Virus record (IMG/VR): IMGVR_UViG_2671180378_000012 | Length of the DNA: 4,183 nucleotides | DNA from: a virus | Lineage: Duplodnaviria; Heunggongvirae; Uroviricota; Caudoviricetes | Reading direction: 5' to 3' (one strand) | Shown here: positions 2,344 to 4,183 of the stretch, in pieces | Position numbering within the stretch: the first letter of the stretch is position 1 | Layout: every line of letters begins with the position of its first letter | Translations under genes and position numbers: made by a program | Notes under the pieces: model-generated | The model's input: only the letters and a program-made list of their open reading frames with translations | What the model was told of the DNA's origin: nothing | Databases searched by the model: none

Positions 2344-2973
2344 ATGACACAGACTGAATCAGCGATTCTGGCGCATGCCCGGCGGTGTGCGCCTGCGGAG
2401 TCGTGCGGCTTCGTGATAAGCACGCCGGAGGGGGAACGGTATATCCCTTGTGTGAATATCTCTGCAGAGCCGGAGGCGTATTTTCGTATCGCACCGGAAG
2501 ACTGGCTGCGGGCAGAGATGCAGGGGGAGATTGTGGCACTGGTCCACAGTCATCCCGGTGGACTGCCCTGGCTGAGCGAGGCTGACCGGCGGCTGCAGAT
2601 AAAAAGCGCACTGCCCTGGTGGCTGGTCTGCCGGGGTGACATTCATAAATTCCGCTGTGTGCCACATNNNNNNNNNNNNNNNNNNNNNNNNNNNNNNNNN
2701 NNNNNNNNNNNNNNNNNNNNNNNNNNNNNNNNNNNNNNNNNNNNNNNNNNNNNNNNNNNNNNNNNNNNNNNNNNNNNNNNNNNNNNNNNNNNNNNNNNNN
2801 NNTGCGGCAACGGTGAACTGCTTCACCATATACCTGAACAACTGAGTAAACGGGAGAGGTATTCTGAAAAATGGCAACGACGAACGCATTCTGTCTGGCG
2901 TCACCGCCACTGGTCCGCATCTGCCTTCACGGGGATTTACAACGATTTGGCCGCCGCCTCAGCCTGTATGTGA
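2344..2973 (+). CDS. K: Tail tip assembly protein K (MPN/JAMM metallopeptidase-like N-terminal domain, NlpC/P60-like C-terminal region); interrupted by N-masked block
   Basis: ATG at 2344 is 10 nt after the L stop and begins MTQTESAILAHARRCAPAESCGF... A JAMM motif H-S-H-x7-S-x2-D is readable at 2545-2586 (HSHPGGLPWLSEAD). The C-terminal tail ...GELLHHIPEQLSKRERY...AFTGIYNDL is lambda gpK-like. Stop TGA at 2971-2973. 135 nt of N (2668-2802) hide the middle of the protein. The ORF-track version (2083..2973) is an upstream in-frame extension that overlaps L and is not believed to be translated. Confidence 0.82.
   Translation: MTQTESAILAHARRCAPAESCGFVISTPEGERYIPCVNISAEPEAYFRIAPEDWLRAEMQGEIVALVHSHPGGLPWLSEADRRLQIKSALPWWLVCRGDIHKFRCVPHXXXXXXXXXXXXXXXXXXXXXXXXXXXXXXXXXXXXXXXXXXXXXCGNGELLHHIPEQLSKRERYSEKWQRRTHSVWRHRHWSASAFTGIYNDLAAASACM
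2668..2802. other. Run of 135 N (masked or assembly gap) inside gene K
   Basis: Literal n characters in the sequence. Length is a multiple of 3 and the K frame is kept across it, but the true underlying length and content are unknown. Confidence 0.99.
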
Positions 2974-3353
2974 ACACGGCAGCGGAGGCCATCCGTGCCC
3001 TGTCGCTGCAGGTGCCGGGATTCCGCCGTCAGATGAACGAAGGCNNNNNNNNNNNNNNNNNNNNNNNNNNNNNNNNNNNNNNNNNNNNNNNNNNNNNNNN
3101 NNNTGCCAGCATGATACTGGGTGGTGTGGCTCAGATGCTGGCCCCGAAGGCTAAAGTACCGGAGTACAAAAGCACGGATAACGGCAGACAGAACACGTAC
3201 TTTTCCTCGCTGGATAACATGATTGCACAGGGGAACCCGATGCCGGTGCCTTACGGTGAAATGCTGGTTGGCTCACGGCGAATCTCCCAGGACATCAGTA
3301 CCCGTGATGAAGGCGGTGACGGGAAGGTGGTGGTTATCGGGCGGCAGGCATAA
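2871..3353 (+). CDS. I: Tail tip assembly protein I (ubiquitin-like N-terminal domain family); interrupted by N-masked block
   Basis: ATG at 2871 begins MATTNAFCLASPPLVRICLHGDLQRFGRR... and the C-terminus is ...GGVAQMLAPKA...QNTYFSSLDNMIAQGN...GEMLVGSRRISQ..., both clearly lambda gpI-like. Stop TAA at 3351-3353. It starts 103 nt before the K stop in a different frame, the same overlap I recall for lambda K/I. 59 nt of N (3045-3103) hide the central region. Confidence 0.85.
   Translation: MATTNAFCLASPPLVRICLHGDLQRFGRRLSLYVNTAAEAIRALSLQVPGFRRQMNEGXXXXXXXXXXXXXXXXXXXXASMILGGVAQMLAPKAKVPEYKSTDNGRQNTYFSSLDNMIAQGNPMPVPYGEMLVGSRRISQDISTRDEGGDGKVVVIGRQA
3045..3103. other. Run of 59 N (masked or assembly gap) inside gene I
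   Basis: Literal n characters. The flanking frame is continuous only if the gap length is taken at face value, so the true length is uncertain. Confidence 0.99.
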
Positions 3354-3390
3354 AAGCGAAAAAATCCCGCAGTGACCGAAGGCTGCGGGA
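3352..3390 (-). terminator. Putative intrinsic-terminator-like hairpin oriented on the minus strand, abutting the I stop codon
   Basis: Perfect 8-bp stem, TCCCGCAG (3365-3372) pairing with CTGCGGGA (3383-3390), with a 10-nt loop. On the minus strand it is followed by TTTTTTCGCTTTT (complement of 3352-3364). On the plus strand it is followed by an A-rich stretch, not a U-tract. Confidence 0.35.
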
Positions 3391-3497
3391 ACAGAAAATG
3401 AAGATTAACCACAGGGAGTTTTGTTTTTATTGGCCCGAAAAAACTGTAACGCCCGGGAATGATATCTGCCACGGGGGCGTACAGAAAATGTGAAGAT
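3391..3497. repeat. Short direct repeat, ACAGAAAATG followed by AAGAT, two copies 90 bp apart in the I-J spacer
   Basis: Exact 10-mer ACAGAAAATG at 3391-3400 and 3481-3490. Copy 1 continues AAGAT, copy 2 continues TG then AAGAT. Both copies sit just 3' of a G-rich hairpin-like segment and are followed within about 25-33 nt by TTTTTATT. Confidence 0.4.
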
Positions 3498-3523
3498 ATT
3501 CAGAATTTTTATTCAGTCATGAT

Positions 3524-3557
3524 ACAGGCATCCTCCGGGATGCCTGTTGTTTTTGTG
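3524..3557 (+). terminator. Putative Rho-independent terminator-like hairpin on the plus strand, about 30 nt upstream of the J start
   Basis: 10-bp stem, ACAGGCATCC (3524-3533) pairing with GGATGCCTGT (3538-3547), with a tetraloop TCCG, followed directly by the T-rich tract TGTTTTTGTG (3548-3557). Confidence 0.45.
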
Positions 3558-3588
3558 CGTAACAGTTATCACAGTAAAGGGTGAGACA

Positions 3589-4183
3589 ATGGGCAAAGGT
3601 GGCGGCAAGGCGCACACGCCGGTTGAGGCAAAGGACAATCTTAAGTCCACGCAGATGATGAGCGTGATTGATGCGATTGGTGAAGGGCCGATTGAAGGTC
3701 CGGTGAAGGGGCTGCAGAGTATTCTGGTGAACAAAACCCCGCTGACGGACACGGACGGTAATCCTGTGATACATGGTGTGACAGCGGTCTGGCGCGCCGG
3801 GGAGCAGGAGCAGACACCACCGGAAGGCTTTGAGTCCTCCGGGGCGGAAACCGCACTGGGCGTGGAAGTGACGAAGGCAAAGCCGGTGACGCGCACCATT
3901 ACGTCCGCGAACATTGACCGCCTGCGGGTCACCTTCGGGGTGCAGTCACTGGTGCAGACCACCTCAAAGGGCGACCGTAATCCCTCTTCTGTCCGACTGC
4001 TGATTCAGTTGCAGCGTAACGGTAACTGGGTGACGGAAAAGGATGTCACCATTAACGGCAAGACCACCTCACAGTTCCTGGCCTCGGTGATTCTGGGTAA
4101 TCTGCCTCCCCGTCCTTTTAACATCCGGATGGTCCGGGAGACAGCGGACAGCACCCCGGACCAGCTGCAGAATAAGACGCTCT
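3589..4183 (+). CDS. J: Host specificity protein / central tail fibre J, N-terminal portion; 3'-partial, continues beyond the window
   Basis: ATG at 3589 begins MGKGGGKAHTPVEAKDNLKSTQMMSVIDAIGEGPIEGPV..., strongly resembling the lambda gpJ N-terminus, including ...EQEQTPPEGFESSG...TRTITSANIDRLR...GDRNPS...NLPPRPFNIRM...DQLQNKTL. I translated the frame by hand and found no stop to the window end at 4183. It is missing from the ORF track only because no stop lies inside the window. Confidence 0.92.
   Translation, partial: MGKGGGKAHTPVEAKDNLKSTQMMSVIDAIGEGPIEGPVKGLQSILVNKTPLTDTDGNPVIHGVTAVWRAGEQEQTPPEGFESSGAETALGVEVTKAKPVTRTITSANIDRLRVTFGVQSLVQTTSKGDRNPSSVRLLIQLQRNGNWVTEKDVTINGKTTSQFLASVILGNLPPRPFNIRMVRETADSTPDQLQNKTL

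Follow-up and report, generated by a model that had tools for sequence, protein, structure and literature searches.

In enterohaemorrhagic Escherichia coli (EHEC) Sakai, UV cross-linking and analysis of cDNA (CRAC) with Hfq gave three homologous peaks, EcOnc22 in the Shiga toxin 1 (Stx1) prophage Sp15, EcOnc23 in Sp14 and EcOnc24 in Sp11 (Table S2 of Tree et al. 2014, PMC4104026). The corresponding RNA gives a band of ~85 nt on Northern blots and is destabilised in a delta-hfq strain (PMC4104026). Hybrid reads labelled EcOnc22, EcOnc23 and EcOnc24, obtained by CLASH (hybrids sequenced after cross-linking and ligation), are joined to yjbJ (ECs5028) and to other mRNAs (Waters et al. 2017, PMC5286369). 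In enteropathogenic E. coli (EPEC) E2348/69, PasB is an RNA of 83 nt on the minus strand of NC_011601.1 (1466343-1466261), within prophage PP6, with AATCCCGCAGTGATCGCGGAGCT as its probe (Table S6 of Pearl Mizrahi et al. 2021, PMC8550237); it shows a log2 fold change of -6.8 in the hfq-dependence comparison and has 37 listed interactions by RNA interaction by ligation and sequencing (RIL-seq) (PMC8550237). Here we describe a relative of these small RNAs (sRNAs) in 4,183 nt of tailed-phage DNA (Caudoviricetes; IMG/VR record IMGVR_UViG_2671180378_000012), referred to below as the window, where it lies in the 235-bp spacer (3354-3588) between the tail genes I and J. With good though not complete confidence, we read this spacer as an antisense, Hfq-dependent sRNA cargo cassette (~3354-3515) in a lambdoid, Stx-type prophage, followed by a J-proximal module (~3516-3588) with a separate terminator-like hairpin, hairpin 2.

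The published RNAs can all be placed at the same junction. Table S2 and the CLASH tables use an older Sakai sequence, whose coordinates are offset from NC_002695.2 by +137 nt at 1.78-2.23 Mb and by about +133 at 5.11 Mb. The +137 offset was calibrated on the three identical copies of another prophage sRNA, HnrS, which lie in prophages of opposite orientation and yield one common sequence only at +137. The EcOnc22-24 coordinates map to the I-J spacers of Sp15, Sp14 and Sp11, antisense to the tail genes. With this correction the peak reads UGCCUGAAAAAUAACUCCAUAACGUUAAUCUUCAUCGUUCUCUCCCGCAGCUCCGCUAACU followed by CUGCGGGAUUUUUUU, the terminator adjoining the I stop codon. The CLASH reads carry GCCTGAAAAATAACTCCATAACGTTAATCTTCA, which is exactly the antisense spacer sequence. 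Uncorrected coordinates on NC_002695.2 had put the EcOnc22 peak on hairpin 2, in antisense, a placement overturned by the HnrS offset control and then by the CLASH reads. The PasB probe and coordinates map antisense to the 240-bp I-J spacer of PP6 in E2348/69, downstream of TTCACA...TATAAT and with the same terminator, whose hairpin is spanned by the Northern probe. As EcOnc22-24 and PasB share the I-J position, the strand and the terminator, they are one family. No paper equating the two was found in the literature searched; EcOnc does not appear in a 2026 preprint on the Pas sRNAs (Zhu, Shabalina & Storz), and in Table S6 homologues are noted for PasA and PasD but not for PasB.

A covariance model (R1) built from 14 alleles, none of the window type, scores 57.1 bits (E=7.7e-10) against minus-strand positions 3358-3452 of the window, in a match that spans the whole model (positions 1-93 of 93); the same model finds no match in lambda. 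The match is located between the I stop (3353) and the J start (3589) on the strand opposite the tail genes, where the reference members map as well. Its score is the lowest among the full-length matches, i.e. that of a divergent allele. By homology in sequence and structure, the window spacer holds a divergent allele of the published PasB/EcOnc22-24 family. PasB and the window allele have in common the locus, the antisense orientation, the terminator stem and U-tail adjoining I, the core 5' of the terminator and a U-run, and their spacers are 76% identical over 233 nt. EcOnc22-24 agree with the window in locus, strand and architecture, at a spacer identity of ~75%. According to the 2026 preprint, variants of PasB differ by only a few nucleotides and are usually single-copy. 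The divergence of the window allele is much greater, and the set that includes it is present at 1-9 copies per genome.

The same arrangement of blocks is found across the family. For comparison we sampled 84 loci with a J N-terminus at least 95% identical to that of the window, of which 75 allowed the I-J spacer to be measured. In the antisense alignment of 25 distinct short spacers, an AT-rich block is followed by a variable stretch in which a -10-like hexamer is fixed, then by a U-run, an AAN tract, an allele-specific segment, the core GUUAAUCUUCAU, an invariant stem of 7-8 bp with a variable loop, and U6-7. Block identities were taken from the multiple alignment; figures inflated by free end gaps were discarded. 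Core, terminator, AT block and hairpin 2 of the window resemble those of other alleles; the promoter spacer (36-54% identity), the AAN and variable segment (45-65%) and the linker (11-44%) are nearly unrelated to theirs.

In the window, the predicted primary transcript of ~94 nt would run from 3452 to 3359 on the minus strand. It would end at an intrinsic terminator (3359-3390) found by the terminator scan: the 8-bp stem UCCCGCAG/CUGCGGGA (3390-3383/3372-3365) encloses a loop of 10 nt and is followed by U6 at 3364-3359, read on the plus strand as arms at 3365-3372/3383-3390 and A6 at 3359-3364. The terminator end is 5 nt from the I stop codon. The window thus carries the family signature, CCCGCAG...CUGCGGG plus a U-tract of at least six adjoining the I stop; over the 25 distinct spacers the stem and U-tract are (near-)invariant, and the loop varies in sequence and length. 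Directly upstream lies the core GUUAAUCUUCAU (3398-3409, minus strand), the best conserved part of the RNA body in the alignments and unpaired in the folds, which we propose as the seed. A PasB seed just upstream of the terminator was proposed independently (Zhu, Shabalina & Storz 2026 preprint). The core is preceded by the allele-specific segment UCCCUGUG (3417-3410) and an A-rich tract of AAN repeats, AAUAAAAACAAAAC (3431-3418); the latter may bind the distal face of Hfq, judging from A-R-N motifs (PMC4104026). Near the RNA 5' end is a conserved U-run (3438-3443); the equivalent run is closely followed by the 5' end published for PasB and by the starts of the CLASH reads. By analogy with these ends, the mature window sRNA would be ~80 nt (~3438 to 3359). 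Upstream of the promoter, the AT-rich block at 3488-3515 is conserved at 86-100% identity across alleles, with 86% of its columns invariant, and may be an UP-like element.

The sRNA would be transcribed from a sigma-70 promoter at the conserved position. Its putative -10 box, TATCAT (3459-3464, minus strand), is in register with the AATAAT or TATAAT of other alleles, agrees with the consensus at 5 of 6 positions and retains the critical A2 and T6. An inverted repeat, CUGUACGCCC...GGGCGUUACAG (3444-3484, minus strand; dG -14.9 kcal/mol, z=-2.87), brackets this box and the predicted transcription start site (TSS) and ends at the U-run. PasB has the same inverted-repeat architecture with a different sequence (z=-3.59); the repeat is weaker in Sp15, and three other alleles have none.

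Several observations weigh against our reading of the spacer. The window sequence at the -35 position, 17 nt upstream of the -10 box (3487-3482), is the weak TTTCTG, compared with TTCACA in many other alleles, and the near-consensus TTCACA...TATAAT of PasB stands against TTTCTG and TATCAT here. A generic promoter scan made no call at this site, the promoter region is the poorly conserved block noted above, and the inverted repeat overlaps the predicted -10. The published 5' ends, from the RNA-seq coverage of PasB and the read starts of EcOnc22-24, lie 14-16 nt downstream of the TSS expected from the consensus promoter, which points to trimming of a primary RNA of ~94 nt to ~80 nt or else to a misassigned promoter. 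Expression of the window allele is predicted from its Sakai and E2348/69 homologues. Sakai itself has at least four alleles of the family (Sp11/14/15; Sp10; Sp12; Sp9), and only the three-copy allele of Sp11/14/15 is listed as an Hfq peak; expression and Hfq binding can therefore not be assumed for every allele. On NC_002695.2 the Sp10, Sp12 and Sp9 alleles lie at 1963489-1963585 (minus strand), 2217630-2217727 (plus strand) and 1794545-1794635 (minus strand). The invariance of the terminator stem leaves it without covariation support, and a single compensatory pair in hairpin 2 is not significant (84 of 500 shuffles match it). The 2026 preprint describes the Pas sRNAs as functionally unelucidated, and no function is given for members of the family. 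Finally, the yjbJ pairing of Sp15 is not conserved, and no comparable predicted pairing with yjbJ was obtained for the window allele.

These promoter features could also be explained by decay, in which case the window cassette, its promoter replaced or lost, would be a remnant that gives no stable RNA, and only its two hairpins would matter, as insulators in an ordinary lineage-specific linker. The low identity of the promoter block, the weak -35, the silent promoter scan, the inverted repeat and U-run over the predicted -10 and TSS, and the several Sakai alleles not listed as Hfq peaks are all in line with this possibility. However, many independent Stx1a and Stx2a phages, and 279 genome records as well, carry the allele at 99-100% identity, and the Sp15 allele, which has been detected experimentally, has an equally poor -35 (TTCCGG). 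The -10 box keeps A2 and T6, and the model is matched from end to end, with no loss in the body, the core or the terminator. We consider decay improbable.

The spacer of the window allele contains a duplicated motif. The initial annotation, made from the DNA sequence alone, had noted a repeated motif of 10-15 nt, and the 10-nt direct repeat ACAGAAAATG is indeed present at 3391-3400 and 3481-3490, extending by eye to ACAGAAAATG(TG)AAGAT; by our estimate, ~0.03 exact 10-mer repeats would be expected by chance in 235 nt. On the minus strand (3391-3405 and 3481-3497) the repeat reads AUCUUCA(C)AUUUUCUGU, the second copy reaching into the AT-rich block, and each copy is followed by a GC-rich hairpin and U6. 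The two units consist of the inverted repeat at 3484-3444 with its U-run and of the terminator at 3390-3365 with its U-tract. This tandem array is confined to the window allele and may represent a partial duplication.

The description of the spacer as structured DNA was borne out in part. A terminator scan of 3100-3800 gave three sites, against 0.9 +/- 0.8 in shuffled sequences, and the two GC-rich hairpins with U-tracts on opposite strands are as described. Fold z-scores of the whole spacer are -2.96 (plus strand) and -1.8 (minus strand). Taken alone, however, the predicted sRNA folds no better than its shuffles (z=-0.07), and the word 'structured' fits only the hairpins. Two details call for correction: the predicted functional RNA is on the minus strand, and the hairpins differ in kind: one is the sRNA terminator, the other a sense-strand hairpin that lambda has in a form of its own.

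The window allele is most unlike PasB in the promoter spacer and in the segment next to the seed. In the CLASH hybrids, the segment of the Sp15 RNA that pairs with yjbJ is CCAUAACGUU, and its counterpart in the window is CCCUGUGGUU; the seed-adjacent segment of PasB is CUCCUUCACAUUGAUCUUCAU, against CUCCCUGUGGUUAAUCUUCAU in the window. Predicted target pairings were compared with mononucleotide shuffles. As the yjbJ-pairing segment is replaced in the window, the alleles probably differ in their targets, via the allele-specific segment. For the Sakai and E2348/69 alleles, the literature documents an Hfq-dependent RNA of ~83-85 nt and chimeras with mRNAs; by analogy, the window allele would behave in the same way.

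The RNA might instead act in cis, by triggering cleavage of the late mRNA between I and J or by blocking J, which would damp leaky tail-gene expression in the lysogen or tune the ratio of I to J in lytic growth and make any trans targets incidental. The RNA is perfectly complementary to the stretch between I and J in a polycistronic late mRNA, its end lying 5 nt short of the I stop, and a highly divergent body is expected if complementarity to its own locus is all that matters. Nevertheless, a conserved short core, an A-rich tract and a 3' U-tail are not needed for pairing in cis, and the homologues depend on Hfq and form chimeras with unlinked mRNAs such as yjbJ, PasB alone with its 37 RIL-seq partners. 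Moreover, the ribosome-binding site of J lies more than 120 nt away without overlapping the RNA, and the same junction also carries sodC, a gene without cis logic. We therefore regard cis action as unlikely and retain action in trans.

A coding function for the conserved motif is hardly credible. Read in sense, ATGAAGATTAAC at 3398 begins an open reading frame (ORF) for a small protein of 31 aa (MKINHREF...; 3398-3493) with a purine-rich stretch upstream, and Sp15 has an ORF of 39 aa with the same first four residues. Yet in about half of the alleles the start is ACG or ACA, the ORFs range from 12 to 39 aa and are unrelated past residue 4-5, and the indels are not multiples of three. The sense ORF was rejected on these comparative data.

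Hairpin 2, on the sense strand (3524-3556), was likewise found by the scan. Its 10-bp stem (arms 3524-3533/3538-3547) contains 6 GC pairs, closes a UCCG loop with a dG of ~ -19 kcal/mol and is followed by UUGUUUUUG (TTGTTTTTG on the plus strand), and it ends ~40 nt before the J start codon. A GC-rich stem-loop directly followed by a U-rich tract has the predicted form of an intrinsic terminator, and across seven alleles 97% of cells are paired. Lambda has an unrelated hairpin-plus-U element at the same place (AACCGCC-TGCG-GGCGGTT followed by TTGTCATTT), as does the class of 342-bp spacers described below, and no counterpart was seen in the class carrying sodC. Hairpin 2 would be a sense-strand terminator or insulator that Q-modified polymerase ignores.

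The position of hairpin 2 raises the possibility of a plus-strand sRNA ending there (~3500-3556), made from a divergent promoter in the central AT-rich block or by processing of the I 3' region, so that the spacer would hold a divergent pair with outward-facing terminators. Hairpin 2 and UUGUUUUUG together form a canonical plus-strand intrinsic terminator, conservation within the spacer is highest in hairpin 2 and the AT block, and dyads of sRNAs are known at another moron site of these prophages. Against this, neither the comparison nor the promoter scan gave a conserved plus-strand promoter, and no plus-sense Hfq peak is listed at the Sakai junction. The conservation follows the J-linked haplotype and need not mean selection, and lambda has a hairpin at the same place with no reported lambda sRNA there. 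The existence of a plus-strand sRNA appears to us even less likely than decay or cis action, and hairpin 2 is best explained as a terminator-like element separate from the antisense cassette.

The initial annotation had contrasted the spacer with one of about 60 bp in lambda, and the lambda spacer is indeed 60 bp (I end 15444, J start 15505). The two junctions have orthologous flanking genes, each with a GC hairpin and U-rich tail on the sense strand shortly before J. Unlike the window, lambda has no antisense sRNA cassette at its short junction, and its hairpin is unrelated in sequence. Lambda thus provides the homologous junction that lacks the segment. Among the related prophages none is lambda-like: the 75 measurable spacers fall into classes of 234-260 bp (47), 336-343 bp (14) and 848-852 bp (14), upstream of a nearly identical J. 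The breaks between classes are modular, with only the first ~160 nt common to the 342-bp class and only the first ~106 nt to the sodC class. The presence of equally long spacers in close relatives (none of 75 below 234 bp) speaks for an ordinary linker, but a small transcript is documented in relatives, and the spacer is therefore not one.

The class of ~850 bp carries an antisense gene for Cu,Zn superoxide dismutase (Pfam Sod_Cu, 3.9e-32), annotated as ECs_1989 between I and J in Sakai Sp10. It retains the full sRNA body and terminator beside I, and all the DNA between these and J, the sRNA promoter included, has been exchanged for the sodC cassette. These prophage sodC morons resemble the window in the junction, the antisense orientation and the I-proximal terminator with sRNA body; they differ in being protein-coding and ~850 bp long, in the loss of the sRNA promoter to the 3' end of the sodC cassette, and in lacking hairpin 2. 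In Sp10 (1963489-1964201) the sodC terminator is immediately followed by the sRNA body and terminator, complete but for the loss of their own promoter, so that the RNA, if made, would have to come from read-through or from processing of the sodC transcript.

The class of ~340 bp (Sakai Sp12) keeps the whole sRNA gene together with its promoter and the AT block, and its J-proximal part is exchanged for unrelated DNA. These ~180 nt (positions ~165-342 of the 342-bp spacer) have no Pfam-recognisable ORF and contain a hairpin, ACCCCGGTATC...GATACCGGGGT, of about -21 kcal/mol, with U-runs on both strands, 105 nt before J; the element could be a bidirectional terminator together with a second small antisense cargo. 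Deletion has removed K and I from prophages of the Sp9 type, which still keep the sRNA at full length (73 bits). The Sp9 terminator lies inside the 3' end of an annotated truncated L-like ORF, ECs_1805.

The I-J junction is thus an antisense cargo slot, filled by the sRNA alone or by the sRNA body with sodC. Morons in the sense of Juhala et al. 2000 (cited in PMC4104026) are cargo cassettes that sit in a phage late operon and are autonomous. The extra DNA here (235 against 60 bp) varies among relatives in three size classes and is atypical in composition, with 44% GC against 56% in I and 59% in J, in keeping with the composition unlike the flanks noted in the initial annotation. Of the features that make a moron autonomous, the terminator is clear, the promoter is a predicted one in the window, and expression of homologues in lysogens has been published. 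The proposal of an inserted element, a moron remnant or an sRNA locus is thus supported, both by the homology to EcOnc22-24 and PasB and by the other antisense cargo, sodC, held at the junction.

The spacer is widely distributed. It is present in 147 phage records, mostly long-tailed phages converting for Stx1a, Stx2a or Stx2c. Of 5426 complete E. coli genomes, 706 contain it, each at 1-9 places (median 3); among the phage and genome matches listed, nearly all have no annotated feature under the spacer. Carriers of exactly the window allele include O157:H7 PV15-279 (NZ_AP018488, around 2042320-2042554) and Stx1_132418. The phage in LC567823 has a spacer 99.6% identical to that of the window, feature-free in the deposited annotation, and is ~95% identical to the window outside it. 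Two short contigs assigned to other bacteria, NZ_JBHTEB010000006.1 (Streptomyces flavalbus) and SFGJ01000116.1 (a metagenome-assembled genome of Clostridiales), have I-J junctions of E. coli type with J 95-97% identical to the window, one with a PasB-family sRNA (the best match to the model, 107 bits) and the other with sodC. They almost certainly represent contaminating E. coli prophage DNA.

The spacer boundaries follow from the flanking genes. Gene I (2871-3353, plus strand) ends with TAA at 3351-3353, and its start codon and context are those of the annotated I in LC567823; J, the tail tip and host specificity gene, starts with ATG at 3589, and its 5' part fills the window to 4183 on the plus strand. 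With the same I/J boundaries annotated in LC567823, the spacer length of 235 bp is secure. The window as a whole is a lambda-type tail module, with the C-terminal part of H (11-1309), M (1306-1635), L (1635-2333) and K (2344-2973) ahead of I and the start of J. The neighbouring genes are as tightly packed as had been stated: H/M and M/L overlap or abut, the L-K gap is 10 nt, and K and I overlap by 103 nt. Runs of N at 2668-2802 (135 nt, in K) and 3045-3103 (59 nt, in I) replace ~250 and ~258 nt of LC567823. Their length is not preserved, and they look like scaffold gaps or masking rather than real sequence.

Other known RNAs were considered as identities for the spacer. An Rfam scan of 3200-3750, a check proposed in the initial annotation, gave no family in the spacer up to E=10. 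Sub-threshold matches to archaeal C/D-box snoRNAs in J (3651-3708, plus strand) reach 15 bits, against gathering thresholds of 39-54, and are due to chance, since the coding sequence here contains GAUGAUGA and words resembling CUGA. In lambda, the newly described sRNAs (PreS/LPR1, LPR2 and 6S) do not map to the I-J junction. AgvB and AsxR represent a type of anti-sRNA of 51-60 nt with a shared 3' region of ~42 nt at the PR' moron site; this identity was set aside on the basis of that location and of the lack of an Rfam match (RF02702, RF02703). Like the window RNA, AgvB/AsxR, HnrS and StxS are short, Hfq-associated, often multicopy RNAs carried as prophage cargo and ending at intrinsic terminators, and they differ from it in locus and sequence.

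HnrS (EcOnc10-12; multicopy, with up to nine copies, in late genes) was likewise rejected, as this 66-nt RNA maps between the genes for the Rz endopeptidase and the terminase. We reconstructed HnrS as CAAUAAUAAUCUUCUACCCAAUCAGUACAUUACUGCUGUGACUCCAACACGGCAGUUUUUUU; its seed, CUUCUACC, pairs with GGUAGAAG at the ribosome-binding site of hha. HnrS and the window RNA are both antisense to late genes and have in common the octamer UAAUCUUC, which is part of the PasB/EcOnc22-24 core and reflects either common ancestry or chance. The window RNA does not have the ACC extension of the hha-pairing CUUCUACC. A shared hha target was discarded, as low RNAduplex energies were reached only via unrealistically long interior loops and the core gives only 4 contiguous pairs at the hha ribosome-binding site.

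Taken as the antisense cassette that we favour, the locus would operate as follows. By analogy with the homologues, the cassette would be transcribed in the lysogen from its own minus-strand promoter, giving an RNA of ~80-94 nt (from 3452 or ~3438 to 3359). By terminating 5 nt short of the I stop codon, antisense transcription would be kept out of I. Hfq would bind and stabilise the RNA through the 3' U-tail and the A-rich tract, and the single-stranded segment just 5' of the terminator would pair with host or prophage mRNAs. In the lysogen, unprogrammed rightward transcription would halt at hairpin 2, which lies just before the J ribosome-binding site; in lytic growth Q-modified polymerase would read through it.

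A more speculative extension, which we put forward with considerable doubt, is that the I-J slot holds one sRNA scaffold, made up of the U-run, the AAN tract, the conserved core and the invariant terminator, that is re-armed by swaps of the promoter and the seed-adjacent segment. Up to nine co-resident paralogues would then differ in regulon and in control of expression, the window allele would have targets of its own, and its inverted repeat would be a control element, either an operator or a terminator for antisense transcription arriving from upstream.

The family as such was already known, if functionally uncharacterised; what the analysis contributes is the gene model, the identity of EcOnc22-24 with PasB and a view of I-J as an antisense cargo slot in which sRNA alleles are swapped. 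With the window, the sRNA family of Shiga-toxin and related EHEC and EPEC prophages gains an allele that is divergent, widespread and so far unannotated, and two names that have been used separately are linked. For annotation, a gene overlooked in almost all phage and genome records among the matches listed now has precise coordinates and a model. For experiments, the alleles offer a well-defined natural set for target swaps. If their targets do differ, the prophage load of a pathogen would set its repertoire of Hfq-dependent regulators.

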